Of a DNA stretch of 64,000 bases, positions 42,900 to 58,351 are shown one piece after another. The stretch lies in contig DASQWC010000023.1 in NCBI GenBank assembly GCA_035640475.1, positions 4,186-68,185 on the forward strand. Direction: 5' to 3'. Each line of letters opens with the position of its first letter. Positions within the stretch are counted from its first letter, which is position 1. Origin of the DNA: Actinomycetota bacterium (GTDB lineage: Bacteria > Actinomycetota > JAICYB01). The notes below the pieces were generated by a model, which saw only the letters and a list, made by a program, of their open reading frames with translations, searched no databases and was not told the DNA's origin. Position numbers and translations under genes: made by a program.

Positions 42900-43319
42900 G
42901 TGCAGCTCGACCTGTCGCGGCTCGTCCGGATCTTCACCGTAGCCGTCGGCGCGCTGATCACGTTCCTCGGTCTGTGGTCGTTCTTCAGCCCGCAGTCCTT
43001 CTACGATCAGCTCGCGACGTTCCCCCCGTACAACCGCCACCTGTTCCACGACGTCGGTGCGTTCCAGATCGGGATCGGCGCGGGCCTCATGCTTGCCGTC
43101 CGTGCGCGCGACGCACTCTTGCTCGGACTCGAGGTCGGTGCGATCGCGTCGGTCGTCCACGCGATCTCGCACGTCATCGACCGGAACCTCGGAGGGCGCA
43201 CGACGGACCCACTCAGCTTGTCGCTTCTTGCGCTTCTGTTCGTCGCCGCCGCCGTCCTGCGGCGGCGCGAACTCTCCTCGCGTGCAGAGCGGCGCGCCGA
43301 GGTCGTCCAGACCGATTAG
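42900..43319 (+). CDS. hypothetical 4-TM membrane protein
   Basis: The GTG start lies 2 nt after the WS/DGAT stop. Four hydrophobic helices; no family recognised. Confidence 0.45.
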   Translation: MQLDLSRLVRIFTVAVGALITFLGLWSFFSPQSFYDQLATFPPYNRHLFHDVGAFQIGIGAGLMLAVRARDALLLGLEVGAIASVVHAISHVIDRNLGGRTTDPLSLSLLALLFVAAAVLRRRELSSRAERRAEVVQTD

Positions 43320-43344: not shown

Positions 43345-43695
<351 letters not shown>

Positions 43696-43702
43696 TTAGT
43701 CC

Positions 43703-45058
43703 CTACGCTCCCGCCATCGTGTATCCGGCCTCGCCGTGTTGCGAGAGGTCGAGACCGGTCGTCTCATCCTCCTCCGTCACACGCAGGCCGATGACGGCGT
43801 TGATGATCACCAGAATGATCAGCGACACCACCAAGGACCACACCGTCGTGATGGCCGATGCGGCCGCCTGTTGGCCCAGCAGCTTGAGACCGCCGCCGTA
43901 GACGAGCCCCTTCTGGCCCATCAGCGCCGTCTGCTCCGTGGCGAAGATGCCGGTGAGCAGCGCGCCGATGAGACCGCCGACGTAGTGCACGCCGACCACG
44001 TCGAGTGCGTCGTCGTAGTTGAAGCGGCGCTTCAGGCTCACCGCGAAGTAGCAGAGGAATCCGGCGGCGAACCCGATGATCAGGGACGACCACGGCCGCA
44101 CGTAGCCCGAGGCCGGCGTGATCGCGACGAGGCCCGCCACAGCACCGGTTGCGGCGCCGACCGTGGTCGGCTTCCGGTGCTGAATCCACTCGGGGATGAT
44201 CCAGCCGAACACGGCTGCGGCCGTCGCCGCGTGCGTGTTCGTGAAGGCCAGGGCGGCCAGCCCACCCGAAGCCAGCGCACTTCCCCCGTTGAACCCGAAC
44301 CAACCGAACCAGAGGATCGACGCGCCCAGGACGACGAACGGCACGTTGTGCGGGACGATCGACGAATCGCCCGGATAACCCTTGCGCCGACCGAGCACGA
44401 TCGCGAACGCGAGCGCCGCGATACCGGCGTTCTGGTGAACGACGGTCCCGCCGGCAAAGTCGAGGGCGCCGAGTCCGTTCAGACCGTTCAGCATCCCGAG
44501 GCCCCACACCCAGTGCGCGACCGGGGCATAGACGACCACGACCCACAGCGCTGTGAACGCGAGATAGGCGCTGAATTTGATGCGCTCCGCGTAGGCGCCG
44601 GCGATCAGGGCCGGCGTGATGACGGCGAACATCATCTGGTAGACGCCGTAGGCCATGTGCGGGATCGTCGCGGCGAGGTCGGCGTTCGGATCGCCCCCCA
44701 CGTCCTTGAACCCGAGGAAATCGAGGCCGCCGAGCCAGCCTCCGTCGCCGATGACCTTCCCGATATCCGGCCCGAACGCGAGCGTGTGACCGATGGCGAC
44801 CCAGAGGACCGTGACGATCCCGAGCGCCATGAACGAGTGCATGATCGTCCCGAGAACGTTCTTCTGCCGGACGAGACCGCCGTAGAAGAACGCCAGGCCC
44901 GGGGTCATGAACATGACCAGGGCGGCCGAGGTCAGAATCCACGCCGTGTCGCCGGTATCCACCGGAGACTCTTGCGCCGCGAAAGCCGGAAGGGCGGTCA
45001 ACGCCACGAACACGGCTCCCAGCGCTGCGATTACCCCTAGACGCCGTCCATTGCGCAT
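43703..45058 (-). CDS. amt: ammonium transporter (AmtB-type)
   Basis: Signal peptide, DTAWILTSAALVMFMTPGLAFFYGG, FAGGTVVHQNAG, VGVHYVGG. SD AGGGGG precedes the ATG. Confidence 0.95.
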   Translation of the reverse strand: MRNGRRLGVIAALGAVFVALTALPAFAAQESPVDTGDTAWILTSAALVMFMTPGLAFFYGGLVRQKNVLGTIMHSFMALGIVTVLWVAIGHTLAFGPDIGKVIGDGGWLGGLDFLGFKDVGGDPNADLAATIPHMAYGVYQMMFAVITPALIAGAYAERIKFSAYLAFTALWVVVVYAPVAHWVWGLGMLNGLNGLGALDFAGGTVVHQNAGIAALAFAIVLGRRKGYPGDSSIVPHNVPFVVLGASILWFGWFGFNGGSALASGGLAALAFTNTHAATAAAVFGWIIPEWIQHRKPTTVGAATGAVAGLVAITPASGYVRPWSSLIIGFAAGFLCYFAVSLKRRFNYDDALDVVGVHYVGGLIGALLTGIFATEQTALMGQKGLVYGGGLKLLGQQAAASAITTVWSLVVSLIILVIINAVIGLRVTEEDETTGLDLSQHGEAGYTMAGA

Positions 45059-45121: not shown

Positions 45122-45148
45122 GTTTCCGATTGTTACGCGTGCGTTAAC
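45122..45148 (-). promoter_or_regulatory. candidate nitrogen-regulator operator, GTTAAC-n16-GAAAC, upstream of amt (43703..45058)
   Basis: The minus strand reads GTTAAC GCACGC GTAAC AATCG GAAAC, ending 63 nt upstream of the amt ATG. The same GTTAAC-n16-GAAAY arrangement occurs upstream of the second amt gene. Confidence 0.35.
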
Positions 45149-45212: not shown

Positions 45213-45560
<348 letters not shown>

Positions 45561-45567
45561 CTAGGCC

Positions 45568-45960
45568 CTACTGCATTCGTGAGAGCACGAACACCAACAG
45601 CACAACGATGGGGACGAACAGTACGAACCGCAGACCACCTTCTCGCAGCGTTCGCTTCACGCCGATCGTTGGATCTGCACCGGCGTCGGTACGTGCCCTG
45701 CGAGATCCGATCCGGCCAAAGAAGATCGCTGCGTATGACGTCCCCAAGGCAACAAGGAAAGCAACCGGTGGGGCATGCAATGCAGACAAGACGACGACCG
45801 CAACGACGAACACGAGCGGTGCGGCTATGCGCGCAACCACGTTGCGCGCATAGCCCGGGTGGGCGCTGCGTAGGTGACGCGCGCGTTCGCGCGCGCCACC
45901 TACGCGAGCTCCACACAGCTCGCAGCGATCGGCCTCCAACCGCTCGGCTGTCTGGGCCAT
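45568..45960 (-). CDS. small membrane protein with N-terminal C2H2-type zinc-finger motif
   Basis: The ATG directly abuts the amt stop (TAGATG). CELCGARVGGARERARHLRSAH gives C-x2-C-x12-H-x4-H, followed by three hydrophobic helices. The glnK SD lies 13 nt downstream. Confidence 0.6.
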   Translation of the reverse strand: MAQTAERLEADRCELCGARVGGARERARHLRSAHPGYARNVVARIAAPLVFVVAVVVLSALHAPPVAFLVALGTSYAAIFFGRIGSRRARTDAGADPTIGVKRTLREGGLRFVLFVPIVVLLVFVLSRMQ

Positions 45961-47613
45961 CTAGACCTCCCGTCCGACGCGGACGGCTCCCGTTGTCGCC
46001 ATCTCGTCCAGCGCCTTGGCGATGGCCGGCGCCTCGAGGTCCGGGTAGGCGTAGACGCCCATCTCCGGAAGGTCGAGACCGATGTCCTCATCCTCGGGCT
46101 TGCTCCGGATGCCCTGGATCGCGTGCTGGAGCTTGAAGAAGATCCAGCCGACGCCACCACCGAAGACGACGATCGTCAGACAACCGATCAGCTGAGCGAC
46201 CAGCTGCCCGCCGTCCCCATAGAACAGGCCCGTCACGGTGCCGTCCACCCCATTCCATCCGGCGCCGTACGTACCGTCGGCGAACAGGCCGAGCGCGATG
46301 AGGCCCCACAGACCGTTGATGCCGTGAACCGAGACAGCACCAACCGGGTCATCGATCTTCGCCCTTCGCTCGAAGAACAAGATCGACTCGATCACGAGCA
46401 CGCCGGCGATCGCACCGATCAGCAGCGCGATTCCCGGTGAGACGAACGCGCAAGGCGCAGTGATGGCAACCAACCCGGCGAGCATCCCGTTCGCGGACAT
46501 GCCTGGATCGGGCTTGCCGAACCGTGACTTTCGCATCGCCCAGAGCATCGCCACGAACGCTCCGGTGGCCGACGCGAGCATCGTGTTCACAGCAACGACG
46601 GAGATCCGCAGGTCCATCGACGAGAGCGACGAACCGGCGTTGAACCCGAACCAGCCGAAGGCGAGGATGAACGTTCCAAGGATTGCCAGCGGCAGGTTGT
46701 ACGCGGGAAGCGTGTTGGGCGTGCCGTCGGCGTTGTACTTGCCCCTGCGAGGTCCGATCACCGAGGCACCGGCGAGCGCAAGCCAGCCGCCCATGCCATG
46801 AACGACCCCGGAGCCGGCGAAGTCGACATAGCCGTGCCCGAAGCCCGACTTGGAGCCGAGCTGTGACAGCCAGCCGCCGCCCCAAGCCCAGTTGCCGAAG
46901 ACCGGGTAGAAGAACATCGAGACGACAAAGCCGTAGACGACAAAGGCTGACCACTTCCAACGCTCGGCCATAGCTCCGGTGACGATCGTCGCCGTCGTAT
47001 CCATGAAGACGAGGTTGAACAGGAAGTGCGTCATCACACCGACGTCGTAGATGCCGCTAAAACCGAAGCCCTTCGTCCCCAGAATGTTCCAGCCACCGAC
47101 CGTGACGGCTGTGCCGCTCAGCGCCTTGGCACCTCCGAGCAATCCGATACCGCCGTAGCTGCCGAACATGAAGGCGTAGCCCACCAGGAAGAATCCGATG
47201 ATGCCGATGCCGTAAATCATGAAATTGGTCATCAACACATGCGCAGAGTTCTTCCGCTGGCAGAAGCCTGTCTCGACGAGCGCGAAACCCGCCTGCATGA
47301 ACATGACGAGGAACCCGGCGACGAGCGTCCACGTGAAGTTGATGCCGATCTTGGCCTTTCCTACCGTGTCCGCGACCTGCTGGAAGGCGTCCTGGTCGTA
47401 GTCGTCGGGCGCCTCCGTGACCGCATTTCCTTCGTCGTCGGTGACGACGTCACCCATGGTGCCGGTCATGTCGCCACACGGGTCTCCGGCGTCCGCTGCC
47501 GAAGCGATCTTGCCGCCGCACGCCTCTTGCGCATGCGCGGCCGCCCCGCCGAACAAGAGCAGCCCCCCGGCGAACAGTGCCAGCAACCAGCCGGCACAAA
47601 TACGTCGGCTCAC
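45961..47613 (-). CDS. amt: ammonium transporter (second copy, divergent clade) with acidic Cys-containing N-terminal extracytoplasmic extension
   Basis: The GTG start follows GGAGGTG. Signal peptide plus ~60 aa Asp/Gly-rich segment. Amt core: FLVMFMQAGFALVETGF, DFAGSGVVHGMGG, AVSVHGINGLWG. Long C-terminal tail. Confidence 0.92.
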   Translation of the reverse strand: MSRRICAGWLLALFAGGLLLFGGAAAHAQEACGGKIASAADAGDPCGDMTGTMGDVVTDDEGNAVTEAPDDYDQDAFQQVADTVGKAKIGINFTWTLVAGFLVMFMQAGFALVETGFCQRKNSAHVLMTNFMIYGIGIIGFFLVGYAFMFGSYGGIGLLGGAKALSGTAVTVGGWNILGTKGFGFSGIYDVGVMTHFLFNLVFMDTTATIVTGAMAERWKWSAFVVYGFVVSMFFYPVFGNWAWGGGWLSQLGSKSGFGHGYVDFAGSGVVHGMGGWLALAGASVIGPRRGKYNADGTPNTLPAYNLPLAILGTFILAFGWFGFNAGSSLSSMDLRISVVAVNTMLASATGAFVAMLWAMRKSRFGKPDPGMSANGMLAGLVAITAPCAFVSPGIALLIGAIAGVLVIESILFFERRAKIDDPVGAVSVHGINGLWGLIALGLFADGTYGAGWNGVDGTVTGLFYGDGGQLVAQLIGCLTIVVFGGGVGWIFFKLQHAIQGIRSKPEDEDIGLDLPEMGVYAYPDLEAPAIAKALDEMATTGAVRVGREV

Positions 47614-47685: not shown

Positions 47686-47712
47686 ATTTCGTCGAAATTG
47701 CGCGACGTTAAC
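47686..47712 (-). promoter_or_regulatory. candidate nitrogen-regulator operator, GTTAAC-n16-GAAAT, upstream of amt (45961..47613)
   Basis: The minus strand reads GTTAAC GTCGCG CAATTTCGAC GAAAT, ending 72 nt upstream of the amt GTG. Same spacing as the site at 45122..45148. Confidence 0.35.
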
Positions 47713-47750: not shown

Positions 47751-47767
47751 GTTAACCCAGACGAAAC
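47751..47767 (+). promoter_or_regulatory. GlnR-box-like site GTTAAC-n6-GAAAC upstream of the winged-helix/antiporter genes
   Basis: GTTAACccagacGAAAC matches the actinobacterial GlnR half-site pair gTnAc-n6-GaAAc, 45 nt upstream of the ATG at 47812. A weaker cTTAAC-n6-GAAGT follows at 47783..47799. Confidence 0.35.
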
Positions 47768-47811: not shown

Positions 47812-48123
47812 ATGCAAGTGAGAGTCGGCGCCGGTGATTCGCTTGCCGTCGGTCGGCTCACAATCGAGCTCGACGCGTATCGAGCTCACCTCGCAGATCG
47901 GGCTCTCGTCCTGACGCCCGCGCAGTTCGACCTGCTCGCCTACCTCGTGCGCAACCGAGACCGCGTCGTCACTCGGGATGAGCTCGCCGTCGCCGGGCGC
48001 CTCGAGCACATGCATTCGGTCGACGTGACACTGTCCTCGCTGCGGCGCGTCCTCGGAGCCGGATTCATCCGCAACGTGCGAAACCGCGGTTGGATCATCG
48101 AGCCCGACGCGGTGAGTTCCTGA
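47812..48123 (+). CDS. stand-alone OmpR/PhoB-type winged-helix DNA-binding protein (no receiver domain)
   Basis: 103 aa. LAVGRLTIELDAYRAHLADRALVLTPAQFDLLAYLVRNRDRVVTRDELA ... VDVTLSSLRRVLG ... IRNVRNRGWII follows the Trans_reg_C pattern. Confidence 0.8.
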   Translation: MQVRVGAGDSLAVGRLTIELDAYRAHLADRALVLTPAQFDLLAYLVRNRDRVVTRDELAVAGRLEHMHSVDVTLSSLRRVLGAGFIRNVRNRGWIIEPDAVSS

Positions 48124-48125
48124 GT

Positions 48126-50867
48126 ATGGAAACCGGCGCGCTGCTCTTACGTCTCGCGCTTCTATTCGTCGTCGCCCGCCTCGCCGCCGAAGTCGCAGAG
48201 CGACTGCATTTTCCCGCCGTGCTCGCCGAGATCGGCGCCGGAGTTCTACTCGGTCCCTCCCTCTTCGGCTGGATCGAACCGAAGGAGCCACTGAGCTTCA
48301 TTGGCGAATTGGGGGCGATCCTCCTGCTGCTCGAAGTCGGACTACATATGGATCTTGCCGACTTGGGCCGTGTGGGTCGCTCGGCCATGCAGGTCGCGTG
48401 GATCGGCATCCTCGTTCCGCTGGCCGCGGGTTTCGCGGGGATGCGAGTCCTGGGCATTGCGACGCCGGTTGCCCTCTTCCTCGCGGCCGGAATCACTGCA
48501 ACGAGTGTCGGCATAACTGCTCGCGTCTTTGCCGACATGCGCGCGCTCACGAGCACCGAGGCGCAGACCGTGCTCGGTGCAGCCATTGTGGACGACGTGC
48601 TCGGCCTCTTGATACTCACTGTGGTTACTCGGGTTTCGTCCGGCGGCCGCATCCAATTTGCGTCGATTGCGGGCGTCACCGTTGCAGGGATCTTGTTCGT
48701 CGTGGGCGCGACGGCCCTCGGCGCGATCCTCATACCTCGTATCTTCGGGCGATTCGTCGGACGCTCTCGCATCGAGGGCACGCTGATCGGCGCGGCCGTG
48801 GCCTTCGGACTGTGCATGGCCGGTCTTGCCGCCGCCGTGAAGCTTGCTCCCATCGTCGGAGCGTTCGTCGCCGGCGTCGCCTTGAGCCGGACCCCGCAAC
48901 GCGACGAGCTGCGCCGCCGGCTCGCTCCCGTCGGTCACCTTTTCGTGCCGGTCTTCTTCCTGCTCATCGGGGCCGAGACGCACGTCCGTACGCTGGCTTC
49001 ACCGCGGGTGCTCGCGGTGGCCGCGGTGCTGGCCGCTATCGCCGTCGTCGGCAAGATCGTGTCGGCGCTCGGTGTCACCCGCGGCGGTGGCGATCGCATG
49101 CTCATCGGCATCGGGATGATTCCTCGCGGCGAAGTCGGCTTGGTGTTCGCAACTCTCGGCTTGTCGAGCGGCGTGCTGAGCGCCCCGCAGCACGCAACGT
49201 TGCTCGCCGTAGTTCTCGTGACAACGCTCGCCGCTCCGCCGTGGCTTCGCCGGCGCATCGATCGCAGCCGTCGTGAGGCCTTTGAAAGTGTCGAGGTTGC
49301 CGAGCCGCCGGACGGATGGCTCCTCGTGACCGATGACGAGGTCGAGTTGCGTGCCGAGCCTTCTGTCGGGCTTGCACACCGCATCGCGCTGGACGCAGCG
49401 CTGTTGTGCGCACAGCGTCGCCCCGGTCCCCGAATCCTCAACTGGCTGTCCGGCGTGCCGGCGCGCACGGCGACATGGGACGCGCAACTCTCACGCCGGT
49501 TCATGGCGCTGCTGCGCGATGGCAATACCCGTTCCTGGCGCTTTCTCGAGGTCACCGGAATGCTGCAGGTACTCCTCCCCAAACTGGAAATTGCTCTCGC
49601 ACGGCGCGCTCACGATCCATTCGATCTCGATCCGGCCTCGGCACTGCGGTGGGATGAGGTCGATGAGCTCAAGCGGATCGTCTCCGACCAGGACGATCCG
49701 GCGAGCGCGCGGTGGCCGGGTGTCGACCAGGAAGCCGTCCTCTTGGCGGCACTCGCACGAAGTGCTTTCGGTCCGGACGCAGCCGCGGAGGCGAGAGCCC
49801 TCGCAACATACGTCGGCTTCAAGGACGACCGGGCGTCGCTGGTCGAGTTTCTCGTTGCCGAGCGGGATCTCTTGCCCGCCGCCGCCGCTCGCATGTCGAT
49901 GGGAACCGAGGAGTCGGTGCTCGCGCTCGCCACGCACATCGGCGATCGCTCGCGCTGCGACGCCTTGTACGTCCTCGCCGCGGCCGGCGAAGAGGAGCCG
50001 ACCGCGCGTAAGCGCCTCGACGAGCTGCGGGGGCTTGTTTCGTCGGCGCTTGCCTCACCGGAGCTGACGAGCGCCGGAATGGGCGTTCTTGAAGAGCGCC
50101 GGCGACAAGTCGTCGAGCTTCTTCCGCGGACGGCCAACGTCGCCGTGCAACATCTGCTCGAGGCGGCTCCGCGCCGCTACTTGCTCGGGCAAACGCCGCA
50201 AGCGATTGCCAAGCACATCCAAATGCTCGACCCGCCTCCGACGAGAGGCGAGGTTCGAATCCGGCCGGAACCCGACCCCGAGCACGGCACATGGACGATC
50301 TTCGTTGCAGCCCTCGACCGTCCCGGCGCCCTGGCAGCAATCGCCGGCGCGCTGACCCGCTGCGAGATACCCGTCCTCGAAGCGGCGATCACGACGTGGC
50401 CGCACGGTCTTGCCGCGGATGTTTTCCGTGTGTCGGCACCCGCAACCACCGATTGGGACGCGGTTCGAAAGGCAGCGACGGAGGCGTTCGCCCATCACGG
50501 TCGCAACGGAAAGCCCGCGAGGATCCCAGGTCAGCTCGAGATCGACAATGCCGCATCGCCGTGGCACACAATCGTCGAAGTCCGGGCCGAGGACAGATCT
50601 GGTCTGCTCTATCGCGTTGCCGAAGCTTTCAGTCGTGCGGACCTGCGGATCCACCACGCAAACGTGTCCACGGTCGATGGTGTCGCCGTCGACACGTTCC
50701 TCGTGACGGACCGCGACGGTCACAAGCTCGGGCATCGCGAACAGGGCGCCCTTCGTCTGTCATTCGAAGGGAAGCTCGGCGCACGCTGGACTCCGGCCCG
50801 GATGTGGCGCCGAGCGACGCCGCAGCCCGAGGCCACGGGCAAGCCCGGCAAGCTGCTCACCCCATAG
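48126..50867 (+). CDS. CPA2 cation:proton antiporter fused to a GlnD-like regulatory tail (degenerate HD domain + two ACT domains)
   Basis: The ATG lies 2 nt after the wHTH stop. The first ~395 aa form a Na_H_Exchanger-type membrane domain. The C-terminal ~480 aa are collinear with GlnD (55793..58351) from its pre-HD region to the end, including both ACT domains. Confidence 0.85.
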   Translation: METGALLLRLALLFVVARLAAEVAERLHFPAVLAEIGAGVLLGPSLFGWIEPKEPLSFIGELGAILLLLEVGLHMDLADLGRVGRSAMQVAWIGILVPLAAGFAGMRVLGIATPVALFLAAGITATSVGITARVFADMRALTSTEAQTVLGAAIVDDVLGLLILTVVTRVSSGGRIQFASIAGVTVAGILFVVGATALGAILIPRIFGRFVGRSRIEGTLIGAAVAFGLCMAGLAAAVKLAPIVGAFVAGVALSRTPQRDELRRRLAPVGHLFVPVFFLLIGAETHVRTLASPRVLAVAAVLAAIAVVGKIVSALGVTRGGGDRMLIGIGMIPRGEVGLVFATLGLSSGVLSAPQHATLLAVVLVTTLAAPPWLRRRIDRSRREAFESVEVAEPPDGWLLVTDDEVELRAEPSVGLAHRIALDAALLCAQRRPGPRILNWLSGVPARTATWDAQLSRRFMALLRDGNTRSWRFLEVTGMLQVLLPKLEIALARRAHDPFDLDPASALRWDEVDELKRIVSDQDDPASARWPGVDQEAVLLAALARSAFGPDAAAEARALATYVGFKDDRASLVEFLVAERDLLPAAAARMSMGTEESVLALATHIGDRSRCDALYVLAAAGEEEPTARKRLDELRGLVSSALASPELTSAGMGVLEERRRQVVELLPRTANVAVQHLLEAAPRRYLLGQTPQAIAKHIQMLDPPPTRGEVRIRPEPDPEHGTWTIFVAALDRPGALAAIAGALTRCEIPVLEAAITTWPHGLAADVFRVSAPATTDWDAVRKAATEAFAHHGRNGKPARIPGQLEIDNAASPWHTIVEVRAEDRSGLLYRVAEAFSRADLRIHHANVSTVDGVAVDTFLVTDRDGHKLGHREQGALRLSFEGKLGARWTPARMWRRATPQPEATGKPGKLLTP

Positions 50868-55796: not shown

Positions 55797-58351
55797 GAAC
55801 GATCTCTGGGCTGAAGTGCCCGGTGGAGACTCTCCTCGATCCGCCGGACGTGCTCCGCGCTTGTGACCCGGTGACCCTCGAGATCGTGGACGTAGAACAC
55901 GTCGACCACCTCCACCCCGTAGGTCGCGATCTTCGCAAACGAGAGGTCGCACCCCACGTCGACCAGCGCTTTCGTGATCATCCGAAGGAGGCCGAGCCTG
56001 TCCTCGGTGTGAACCTCGACGACCGTGTGGGTCTGGGACGCGTGGTTGTCGACGACGACCTGGAGGCTGGCGCCCGATCTGGTGCCCATGCGCCGGCGCC
56101 TGGATTGGGCGGCCTTCCGGCCGAGCTGGTCGTCGAGGTCGAGGTGCCCGTCCAACGCCGAGGCGATGTCGCGCCGCACCTGCTGCCAGCGATCCTCGGG
56201 AACCGAGCCGTGCGCCCCGCGGACGCGGAAGACTTCGATGGCAACACCGTCCGAGCGCGTGTAGATCTCGGCGTCGTGTACGTCGATCGACCGAAGGGCA
56301 AGCACGCCGGCTACGGCTGCGAACAGGCCCGGCCGGTCGTGCGCGACCACGATGAGCTCGTCGGCTTCCTCCAGCCGCTCCTCGGACGTCCGCACCTCAC
56401 CCGGGCCGAGGGGTTCGCGCAGCAGACGAAGCTGGCGAAGTGCCGCGTCGACCTCCAGACCGGCGAGCCATGCCTCGGGCATCGGTCCGACGACGCGCTC
56501 GGCCTCCTCACGTGACAACTCGAGCGTTTCGGCGAGCGCTCCGAGCTGCTGCGACATCTCCCCGGGCGCGTCCGGCGCGCCTTCGAGACGGTGCTTCGTC
56601 TTGGCGTAGAGCTCCCGCACGAGTGAGGCCCGGAAGGACGACCATGCCTCGGGGCCCGTCGCGAGCGAATCCGCACGCGTGAGCAGGAACAACATGGCCA
56701 GACGCCGGATGTCGCCGACTCGCTCTACGGTCTCGTCGATCGTCCGCGCATCGTTGAGATCCCTGCGCGTCGCCAGCGAGACCAACGTCAAGTGCTCACG
56801 GACGAGAAACTCGACGTCGTCGACCTTGGACGGCTCGAGTCCGATGCGCCGCGCCGACTCGACGGCGAGGCGGCTCCCCTGCGCGGAGTGATCGCCTCCT
56901 CGTCCTTTTCCGATGTCGTGGAGCAGTGCGGCGAGGAATAACGGCTGGTGGTCGTCGACGTACGACCAGGCATCTTTTTGGTCGCGCTCGTCGGAGGAGC
57001 GGCTGGCGGCGAGCTCGGCGACGGCGGCGAGCAGATGCCGGTCCACCGTGTACCGGTGATAGAGATCGCGCTGTGGAAAACATCTGATCGGGTCCCACTC
57101 GTGCAAGAGGGCGCCGAGCAGTCCGGCGAGATCCATTGCTTCAAGCGCGCGAACGCCGCCCGCGCCCGATTGAAGAATGTCGAGGAATACCTCGCGTGCG
57201 TCGGAAGTCCATACGAGCTCCGGCGATTGCACCAAGTCCTCGTGCAAACGGTTGAGTGCGCCTCGTCCGATCGGCGCATCGCGTCGAACCGATGTAAGGA
57301 ATACTCGCAACCAACCCGCGGGATCGTCGCGCGGGTGCGTCACCGCCGTAACCTCTAGTCGTCCGTCGACGAGCACACATCCTTCGCCCGCGGTCTCCGT
57401 GTCGGTCGAACGCCAGCGACGACGACGCTGGTGTGTGATGCGATCCCAGAAGCTCGTCACGACCGCGTCGACTTGGCGCGCGTGTGCGTAGAGCTCCTGC
57501 ATCACGCGATCGGCGGGCCCGGCGCCGTTCCCTTCGTATCCGAACCGGCGCGCGAGGTCGTCCTGCTCGGCGAGATACAGCTGGTCCTGGTGCCGAGCCG
57601 TCAGCAAGTGCAGACCGATCCTGAGACGAAGCAGAAACGTTCGTGCCGACGCGATGAGGTTTCGATCGAGCTCGCTCAGGTGCCCGGAGGCAACGAGACC
57701 CTCGAGACCGTCGCCACCCGGCAACACCTTCGACGCCCACAGGATCGTATGAATGTCTCGCAGCCCTCCCGCTGAGTCGCGGATGTTCGGCTCGAGCAAG
57801 TGACCCGCGTGTCCGTAGCGCAGATGCCGGTCCGACGATGACTTCACGAGTTCCCTGAAGAAGGAGGCCCGTCCCCGGTCGATCCGCCGGCGTACCGATC
57901 CATCGAGATCGGCGAACAAACCGCGATCGCCGGACAGGAAGCGAGCATCGATTACCGCGCACACCTCGTCGATTTGATTGAAGTTTCGAATGACGTCACG
58001 AGGTTCGCGGATCCTGTCGCCGAGCTCGCGTTTCGAGTCGTACAGCGGGTACATCACCTCGCGGCTCAACGCGGTGACGTCCGCGCTCGGCCAGCCCCGA
58101 TAGAGCAGCAATAAGTCCAGGTCGGAGGCGGGAGCCAGCTCGCGCCGTCCGTAGCCCCCGAGAGCCAGGAGGGCGATTCCTTCCTGCGGACGGCCCGAAC
58201 GCGAGAGCGCGTCATCGAAGACGCCGACGACGATCGCATCGACGTCGTTGGAGTGCGCAACAACGATGTCGTCCGACGACATACCCGAGTCGCCGAGCGA
58301 CTCGACGCGGCCACGAGCGCGGGCGAATGCTTCGCGGATCTCGACGGTCAC
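55793..58351 (-). CDS. glnD: [protein-PII] uridylyltransferase/uridylyl-removing enzyme
   Basis: NTase motif LALGGYGRRELAPASDLDLLLLY, HD domain (YHRYTVDRH ... LLHDIGKG) and two C-terminal ACT domains. GTG start at 58351. Confidence 0.92.
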   Translation of the reverse strand: MTVEIREAFARARGRVESLGDSGMSSDDIVVAHSNDVDAIVVGVFDDALSRSGRPQEGIALLALGGYGRRELAPASDLDLLLLYRGWPSADVTALSREVMYPLYDSKRELGDRIREPRDVIRNFNQIDEVCAVIDARFLSGDRGLFADLDGSVRRRIDRGRASFFRELVKSSSDRHLRYGHAGHLLEPNIRDSAGGLRDIHTILWASKVLPGGDGLEGLVASGHLSELDRNLIASARTFLLRLRIGLHLLTARHQDQLYLAEQDDLARRFGYEGNGAGPADRVMQELYAHARQVDAVVTSFWDRITHQRRRRWRSTDTETAGEGCVLVDGRLEVTAVTHPRDDPAGWLRVFLTSVRRDAPIGRGALNRLHEDLVQSPELVWTSDAREVFLDILQSGAGGVRALEAMDLAGLLGALLHEWDPIRCFPQRDLYHRYTVDRHLLAAVAELAASRSSDERDQKDAWSYVDDHQPLFLAALLHDIGKGRGGDHSAQGSRLAVESARRIGLEPSKVDDVEFLVREHLTLVSLATRRDLNDARTIDETVERVGDIRRLAMLFLLTRADSLATGPEAWSSFRASLVRELYAKTKHRLEGAPDAPGEMSQQLGALAETLELSREEAERVVGPMPEAWLAGLEVDAALRQLRLLREPLGPGEVRTSEERLEEADELIVVAHDRPGLFAAVAGVLALRSIDVHDAEIYTRSDGVAIEVFRVRGAHGSVPEDRWQQVRRDIASALDGHLDLDDQLGRKAAQSRRRRMGTRSGASLQVVVDNHASQTHTVVEVHTEDRLGLLRMITKALVDVGCDLSFAKIATYGVEVVDVFYVHDLEGHRVTSAEHVRRIEESLHRALQPRDRS

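Follow-up and report, generated by a model that had tools for sequence, protein, structure and literature searches.

Textbooks describe the regulation of Amt ammonium channels as a matter of P-II: canonically, the gene behind amt codes for GlnK (P-II), which regulates AmtB from the cytoplasm via an arginine-bearing loop, and the contiguity of amt and glnK holds for Amt genes in general. The only other dedicated small-protein regulator of Amt described to our knowledge is sP36, which is archaeal and soluble. Here we analyze a 64-kb stretch of DNA (hereafter the window) from an uncultured soil member of the Actinomycetota (GenBank assembly GCA_035640475.1, contig DASQWC010000023.1), in which an open reading frame (ORF) of 130 amino acids (aa) lies between an ammonium transporter gene, amt1, and a P-II gene, glnK1. 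Its product, which we call ZnfTM, combines an N-terminal C2H2-like finger with three predicted transmembrane (TM) helices, and its gene travels with one clade of Amt transporters. An original prediction, made from the letters of the window without database searches, had singled out this ORF as a possible accessory of the Amt-GlnK complex, and it is followed up here by computational analysis.

In Methanosarcina mazei, ammonium transport is controlled by sP36, a 61-aa protein with AmtB1 and GlnK1 as binding partners; it is soluble, without a TM helix, moves to the membrane on ammonium upshift, and mediates the docking of GlnK (PMC10714827). It appears to be the closest described analogue of ZnfTM, both being small, non-enzymatic, apparently specific to an ammonium transporter and connected with the nitrogen regulon, with a proposed control of the channel at its cytoplasmic face. 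Compared by architecture, sP36 is a soluble protein of 61 aa, whereas ZnfTM has 130 aa, three predicted TM helices and a Cys2His2 motif, its gene lying immediately after amt. Moreover, sP36 acts through GlnK, whereas ZnfTM is present in a genome without a P-II gene. With GlnK itself ZnfTM has in common a conserved arginine-rich loop that is predicted to be cytoplasmic (loop 2, see below), but the fold is unrelated, ZnfTM being membrane-integral and having no known effector-binding site; a plug-like action of loop 2 might be inferred purely by analogy.

Small membrane proteins that serve as subunits or regulators of transporters include KdpF, AcrZ, MgtS/MgtR and the FXYD/gamma subunit of the Na,K-ATPase (PMC10710835). 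Proteins of the KdpF type are short and hydrophobic, bind their cognate transporter in the membrane, and tune its activity or stability, and some of them (KdpF) are encoded in the transporter operon. However, they have one helix and no metal-binding domain, whereas ZnfTM would have three helices and a zinc-finger head, and its similarity to FXYD is at chance level only (E about 1).

Concerning the finger, the bacterial Cys2His2 proteins Ros/MucR have a spacer of 9 residues and fold into a globular beta-beta-beta-alpha-alpha domain of 58 residues around a core of 15, and Ros is a soluble DNA-binding repressor of alpha-proteobacteria (PMC9779718). ZnfTM resembles them in carrying a putative Cys2His2 zinc site on a predicted hairpin and helix, but its spacer is of 12-13 residues, its domain takes up ~25 residues before the first TM helix (TM1), and it is membrane-anchored and found in Actinomycetota; no Pfam match to Ros/MucR was obtained for the ORF or for 33 aligned members of its family. 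The spacer of 12 residues in the window protein is the eukaryotic spacing and not the 9 of Ros/MucR. Likeness to the classical C2H2 finger (PF00096) lies in the spacing C-x2-C-x12-H-x4-H and perhaps in a predicted beta-hairpin and helix with both histidines on the helix, and the difference lies in ZnfTM having a single finger that is joined directly to a TM helix, with the classical hydrophobic core positions only partly kept. No bacterial membrane protein with a C2H2 finger and a link to ammonium transport came up in a full-text search of the literature.

The zinc-binding anti-sigma factors (ZAS) carry an N-terminal H-x3-C-x2-C motif in a domain of ~80 residues that is followed by a TM helix, and are encoded next to a sigma factor gene. 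We rejected this reading for ZnfTM, in which the order of the ligands is reversed (C..C..H..H) and the soluble head comprises ~35 residues only; no sigma factor genes were found in the examined neighbourhoods, and there was no Pfam match to zf-HC2.

Genomic association with one clade of ammonium transporters

On the minus strand, the 64-kb window holds in order amt1, the 130-aa ORF, glnK1, and then a second pair, amt2 and glnK2:

45961..47613, minus strand: amt1, an ammonium transporter of 550 aa from the ZnfTM-linked clade (Pfam PF00909 at 1e-105; Amt tree)
45966..45971, minus strand: GGGAGG Shine-Dalgarno sequence for ZnfTM, within the 3' end of amt1 (read in the sequence)
45568..45960, minus strand: ZnfTM gene, 130 aa, N-terminal C2H2-like finger and three predicted TM helices (ORF, homologues, ratio of non-synonymous to synonymous substitution rates (dN/dS), AlphaFold)
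45213..45554, minus strand: glnK1 (P-II), 3' of ZnfTM in the GTDB family of the window only (Pfam PF00543; synteny)
43703..45058, minus strand: amt2, an AmtB-like second transporter, without ZnfTM (synteny; Amt tree)
43345..43683, minus strand: glnK2 (ORF list; synteny)

The stop codon TAG of amt1 (45961-45963) is directly followed, in frame, by the ATG of ZnfTM, whose Shine-Dalgarno sequence lies 5 nucleotides (nt) upstream of it, and 13 nt, GAGGAG included, separate the ZnfTM stop TAG from the glnK1 start. These junctions are as tight on both sides as the original prediction had described them. No promoter-like or terminator-like sites lie between amt1, ZnfTM and glnK1, and, to judge from the spacing, ZnfTM is probably co-transcribed with amt1.

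We surveyed the gene context of ZnfTM in every lineage with sufficient flanking DNA (n=17). It belongs to the same cluster as an Amt1-type gene in all 17 independent lineages, and lies directly 3' of that gene in 15 of them, with a spacing that goes from a 4-nt overlap to ~40 nt (window, L001, L006, L007, L008/L009, G009, G012, G060, G149, G152, G165, G191, L036, G298, P0043). The most distant member (P0043, on L126), at 30% identity, is still found directly 3' of amt, and uncultured Actinomycetota of at least five GTDB families keep the linkage with Amt1. What comes after ZnfTM is more varied: glnK is next in the family of the window alone (window, G009, L006-L009), a Na+/H+-exchanger/GlnD-like fusion follows in G149 and G152, and ZnfTM is the last gene of the operon in G165 and G012. 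Of the Amt-GlnK pair that had been proposed as its partner, the link to Amt is therefore upheld and that to GlnK is restricted to one family. Such restricted adjacency speaks against a general insertion into a pre-existing amt-glnK pair: an amt1-ZnfTM module lies beside glnK in one lineage.

The association was also followed from the side of the transporter, in the 80 nearest Amt1 relatives retrieved with Amt1 as a query from 185,579 GTDB species representatives. ZnfTM lies beside only six of these 80, all in loci of Actinomycetota lineage (one is labelled Acidobacteria in its record, and a genome search puts it in the window's phylum), and none of the Acidobacteriota, Chloroflexota, Armatimonadota or other relatives among the 80 has ZnfTM beside it. 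In a maximum-likelihood tree of 101 Amt sequences, 14 ZnfTM-linked Amts fall in one clade of 15, and the distribution of the linkage takes 2 state changes, versus 13.4 when labels are shuffled (0 of 500 shuffles as low). Between the window's Amt1 and the linked Amt of G165, which belongs to another family, identity reaches 81%, compared with only 48-55% for the unlinked amt1-like genes from the window's own family (G006, G007), where glnK comes directly after amt. Since Amt1 is closer to the linked Amt of another family than to the unlinked ones of its own, amt1 and ZnfTM behave as one inherited module. Members of the linked clade have residues of their own, namely V211 (Pro in all 69 other relatives), Q496 and Q500, where the cytoplasmic C-terminal region begins, and, behind the signal peptide, a periplasmic stretch that reads AQ..CGG(K)...DPCGD and includes two conserved cysteines (residues 28-48; window region 47500-47540).

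The idea of an ORF wedged between amt and glnK had started from the premise that the two are normally contiguous. This is established for Amt in general, but for this Amt type glnK is found no more than 3.5 kb downstream in only 17 of the 80 relatives (within ~660 nt in 16 of these), which makes the premise weaker here.

Concerning P-II, the carriers outside the window's family possess a single P-II gene elsewhere, usually adjoining glnD. In one carrier, G012 (95% complete), we found no P-II gene and no separate GlnD-type gene; its matches to GlnD_UR_UTase are double and lie within one frame of ~1000 aa, as for GlnE rather than GlnD. On the basis of this genome we take the core role of ZnfTM to be P-II-independent. 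We also considered and rejected ZnfTM as an sP36-like stand-in for a missing GlnD, as GlnD-type genes are present in the window genome (~57449-57862) and in most carriers.

Other genes occur behind transporters of this type. In metagenome-assembled genomes (MAGs) of Vicinamibacterales (L041, L066, L069, L107), an unrelated conserved mini membrane protein of ~45-60 aa, with the core ...AGGLLVKFGAPLPAVAAG...W.WK, is encoded 4-33 nt after an Amt1-type gene, and it seems that genes for small membrane proteins came to lie behind this Amt type at least twice. Among Chloroflexota and in part of the Acidobacteriota (L048, L076, L079, L081, L088, L091), an Amt1-type gene is followed after 16-85 nt by a gene for a CPA2-like cation/proton antiporter of ~395-425 aa, an echo of the antiporter/GlnD-like fusion of the window (48090..50867) that suggests a broad Amt-antiporter linkage. 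Within the window's family, L116 (G007) carries at 668-1396 an amt1-like gene with two tandem glnK and no ZnfTM, and L117 (G006) has amt-glnK-amt-glnK-amt in a row.

A rare and unnamed family under purifying selection

Scans of the ORF and of the 33 aligned family members against Pfam and NCBIfam gave sub-threshold noise only (ZnF_RZ, TgpA_N, Rv2743c, dksA/traR), all of it far from the respective cut-offs, no match for the family was found in the PDB or in the literature, and the sole name given to ZnfTM in any source is "hypothetical protein". A word-indexed search of 5.8 billion proteins retrieved 17 further clusters at 53-82% identity, and an exhaustive HMMER scan of 1.84 billion representatives retrieved 24 clusters at E <= 0.001, all of at most 165 aa. 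One match, in G126 (E = 6e-4), was discarded as spurious, being located inside a 451-aa glycosyltransferase-like membrane protein. Of 401 genomes sampled evenly across the phylum, 12, spread over five GTDB families, carry ZnfTM. The protein family is rare, occurs in uncultured Actinomycetota only, and is new and unnamed, while the theme of small transporter-associated proteins is already known.

Between close relatives, dN/dS (Nei-Gojobori) is 0.15-0.18 for ZnfTM, versus 0.11-0.16 for amt1 and 0.17-0.27 for glnK1. Substitutions with respect to L006 are distributed 27/19/66 over the three codon positions, mostly on the third, and comparison with the three nearest syntenic relatives shows more codons changed synonymously than non-synonymously. 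ZnfTM is a real gene under purifying selection, and the conservation of the ORF in related genomes, on which the original prediction depended, extends to homologues of 27% identity. The copy of G009 is split by a frameshift, but amt2 is split as well in the same error-prone assembly of three contigs, and an assembly error is the probable cause.

The GC content at third codon positions (GC3) of ZnfTM is 0.67 in the window versus 0.83-0.88 for its neighbours, and 0.73-0.78 versus 0.86-0.90 in L006-L008, which suggests weaker codon adaptation. With a GC3 below that of amt and glnK, the stoichiometric expression with Amt and GlnK that had been proposed is not implied at the level of translation.

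A putative zinc finger joined to three membrane helices

The window protein starts with MAQTAERLEADRCELCGARVGGARERARHLRSAHPGY and contains the motif C-x2-C-x12-H-x4-H, in the form CELCGARVGGARERARHLRSAH, followed by three hydrophobic stretches. This agrees with the classical C2H2 ligand spacing, C-x2-4-C-x12-H-x3-5-H. All 33 members of the family alignment, at 27-82% identity to the query, have C13, C16, H34 and P48, and H29 is kept in at least 90% of them; C-x2-C-x11-13-H-x4-H is present in 31 of the 33, the remaining two having x11/x5 and x10/x4. A close copy from a MAG (P0008) has Gly in place of C13. The alignment contains no conserved block of 7-10 residues.

In profile comparisons, PF00096 had no significant match, with one of the 33 members at E = 0.2, and a profile search of the PDB gave sub-threshold matches only (best E = 0.05; matches to C2H2 fingers at E >= 0.09). 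Most of these sub-threshold matches are to C2H2 fingers of eukaryotes, with the four ligand positions in register, among them those of ZNF410, ZNF692, ZFY, HIC2, ZFAT, BCL11A, Gfi-1 and CTCF. The finger of ZnfTM is arginine-rich, as in nucleic-acid-binding fingers.

An AlphaFold2 model of ZnfTM, built on the family alignment, has a mean predicted local distance difference test score (pLDDT) of 81.6 and a predicted TM-score (pTM) of 0.65. The finger is modelled with strand residues 12 and 19 and a helix at 23-33 (pLDDT 88-92), and three long helices follow at 35-60, 65-93 and 101-128. Hydropathy averaged over the family and AlphaFold agree on three TM helices, at ~35/39-60, 65-84(93) and 101/109-128, and in the model the finger helix passes through H34-P35 straight into TM1. 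A Foldseek search of the whole model against the PDB returned nothing below E = 5. The parts of the protein map on the window as follows:

45859..45924, minus strand: putative zinc site, residues 13-34, with C13, C16, H29 and H34 (alignment, model, sub-threshold PDB matches)
45781..45846, minus strand: predicted TM helix 1, residues ~39-60, running on from the finger helix (AlphaFold, hydropathy)
45709..45768, minus strand: predicted TM helix 2, residues ~65-84, after a periplasmic turn H-A-P-P in which A63 and P64 are conserved (alignment, AlphaFold, hydropathy)
45637..45708, minus strand: basic cytoplasmic loop 2, residues 85-108, GSRRARTDAG...KRTLREGG (conservation, count of lysines and arginines (K+R))
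45580..45636, minus strand: predicted TM helix 3, residues ~109-127, with the C-terminus outside (AlphaFold, hydropathy)

Loop 2 is the best-conserved soluble segment after the finger, with the family form GSRxARxxAG...R..REGG, and S86, R87, A89, R90, A93, G94, R103, E107, G108 and G109 are invariant among close homologues. The family-mean K+R count is 6.3 for the N-terminus, 0.2 for loop 1, 5.6 for loop 2 and 0.9 for the C-terminus, so that, by the positive-inside rule, ZnfTM is predicted to have its N-terminus inside and its C-terminus outside, with the finger and loop 2 in the cytoplasm. The spacing of the motif and the three hydrophobic helices behind it had been described in the original prediction, which would have been refuted by cysteines and histidines that vary among homologues; the spacing, the helices and the conservation are all borne out.

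Other features of the neighbourhood

Two further genes lie divergently upstream of amt1:

47812..48123, plus strand: divergent 103-aa protein with a Trans_reg_C DNA-binding domain only, part of the conserved neighbourhood (Pfam on orthologues; synteny in G165)
48090..50867, plus strand: 925-aa Na+/H+-exchanger protein with an ACT/GlnD-like tail (Pfam labels; synteny in L026, L027, L028, L032)

In other families, the exchanger with an ACT/GlnD-like tail is often in the same operon as amt1-ZnfTM. In L125/L126, ZnfTM is followed by a multi-pass membrane protein of ~136-139 aa (L125, 547-957), similar in character to the small membrane ORF by glnK2 in the window (42900-43319). Three GTTAAC sites, which resemble GlnR-type boxes (GTTAAC...GAAAT/C), occur in the window, one before amt2 (45143-45148) and two in the intergenic region between amt1 and the regulator (47707-47712, 47751-47756); their placement is striking, and their number is not above chance (2.3 expected). 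The T-loop of GlnK1 is slightly unusual, in that Ala replaces the usual Lys/Arg and Phe replaces Tyr46, while that of GlnK2 is canonical. Relatives of glnK1 (45213-45554) use a TTG start, and a real TTG start may precede the annotated ATG.

Possible functions of ZnfTM

To the explanation that we favour, namely that ZnfTM, itself integral to the membrane, serves this Amt clade as an accessory or regulator with a core role independent of P-II, we give an even chance. It displays the consistent genomic association that would be expected of an Amt accessory, in 17/17 lineages and with monophyletic linked Amts. The putative zinc-bound beta-beta-alpha knuckle would lie flat at the cytoplasmic face of the membrane, because the finger helix continues straight into TM1 in the model; TM1 and TM2 are predicted to form a hairpin, followed by the arginine-rich cytoplasmic loop and by TM3. 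The three helices might dock on the lipid-facing surface of the Amt trimer, which would bring the finger and the basic loop to the cytoplasmic face of the channel, near the Amt C-terminal region. In that position ZnfTM could act on conduction itself, or on cytoplasmic partners by recruiting them or competing with them, candidates being GlnK where present, glutamine synthetase, and the antiporter-GlnD-like protein of the same cluster. Both this binding surface and the mode of action, be it to inhibit, activate, stabilise or recruit, are what we would infer from such an arrangement.

A more specific version, which we regard as doubtful, would make ZnfTM a P-II-independent gate, whose helices bind the channel and whose zinc- or redox-sensitive finger sets the arginine-rich loop to plug or release the cytoplasmic exit of the pore. 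ZnfTM would then be a membrane-integral analogue of the GlnK T-loop, answering to a signal other than 2-oxoglutarate/ATP.

A possible packing of ZnfTM on Amt was modelled with AlphaFold as a single chain of 681 aa, in which the amt1 TAG is read as Q. The alignment had 108 rows, comprising four natural in-frame pairs, 74 Amt and 30 ZnfTM sequences, and the model reached a pLDDT of 88.3 and a pTM of 0.76. By blocks of 10 residues, the pLDDT of ZnfTM is 59 89 91 97 92 90 89 91 94 92 76 76 77 in the fusion and 62 88 90 92 86 90 90 86 84 81 64 73 76 alone, the loop-2 blocks rising from 81 and 64 to 92 and 76. The fusion model is compatible with ZnfTM packing on Amt and proves nothing. As for a programmed read-through of the TAG, we rejected it, since amt1 and ZnfTM are in frame in 4 of ~11 lineages, near the chance value of 1/3, and no long fusions exist among the homologues; the other amt-ZnfTM junctions overlap out of frame or are 7-20 nt apart.

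Several observations weigh against a dedicated Amt partner. The rise of pLDDT in the fusion is small and the fusion model cannot show a contact between Amt1 and ZnfTM, and none of the 24 representative matches in 1.84 billion proteins is a natural Amt-ZnfTM fusion. ZnfTM is absent within 3.4 kb of one Amt gene nested in the linked clade (L038). The finger appears to be missing from two short representatives (P0035, P0038), whose contigs are too short to judge the true start. The lower GC3 argues against equal expression with amt and glnK, and we found no RNA runs holding the window ZnfTM or its G165 homologue, the sequencing runs with the locus being of soil metagenome DNA only. Finally, glnA lies between amt and ZnfTM in 2 of the 17 lineages, two species of one genus (G169, G353) with the order amt-glnA-ZnfTM-proline-dehydrogenase-like and a gap of several hundred nt, and directly follows ZnfTM in G298 and in P0040, whose upstream flank is too short to show amt. 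With such glnA-linked arrangements, the tie could be to nitrogen assimilation generally and not to the channel. In G169 and G353, the proline-dehydrogenase-like (putA-like) gene codes for 301 aa and starts ~30-40 nt after ZnfTM (L023, 7058-7963; L024, 8403-9308).

The main rival explanation, possible and tentatively held, is that ZnfTM does not bind the channel and is instead a membrane-tethered zinc-finger signalling or adaptor protein of the nitrogen regulon, holding a soluble partner (GlnK, glutamine synthetase, the GlnD-like tail of the antiporter, or nucleic acid) by means of its finger and basic loop. It would explain the glnA-linked arrangements and, more widely, neighbours that are varied but always related to nitrogen: glnK in family f1, glnA in G298, G169, G353 and P0040, and the antiporter-GlnD-like protein in G149 and G152. 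C2H2 fingers are moreover classic binders of DNA, RNA and protein, including in bacteria (PMC9779718), and the arginine-rich character of this one points in the same direction. However, Amt1 is the sole constant neighbour (17/17), none of the soluble candidates is constant, and G012 is without P-II and GlnD. Binding of DNA in particular would have to be achieved by a single finger without the flanking basic tail of the Ros type, and a helix that ends at H34-P35 and is modelled to run into TM1 would leave little room to wrap DNA.

Less likely still, and in our view improbable, is that ZnfTM acts outside the working channel as an assembly or stability factor for the insertion or trimerisation of this Amt clade only. 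Its translational coupling to amt1, the unusual cysteine-containing periplasmic N-terminus that is specific to the linked Amts (CGG...C.D), and a lower GC3 fitting sub-stoichiometric amounts would all suit such a factor. Nevertheless, the conserved soluble parts of ZnfTM are predicted to be cytoplasmic whereas this Amt N-terminus is periplasmic, and we know of no membrane-protein chaperone that features a zinc finger.

That ZnfTM is a hitch-hiking or decaying ORF with a fortuitous motif and no function in ammonium uptake is hardly credible: the GC3 below that of its neighbours, the split copy in G009 and the presence in only 12 of 401 phylum genomes could be read in this way, but it is already contradicted by the low dN/dS (0.15-0.18), the invariant Cys/His down to 27% identity and the linkage kept in five families, and the G009 frameshift is, together with that of amt2, probably an assembly error.

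The interest of a partnership between ZnfTM and its Amt clade is limited by a narrow and uncultured host range. A short protein and an Amt partner that is easily assayed heterologously make the hypothesis cheap to test. If true, it would be a rare case of a C2H2 finger of classical spacing used at a bacterial membrane, and would point to a second, unexplored control of ammonium uptake in abundant uncultured soil bacteria.

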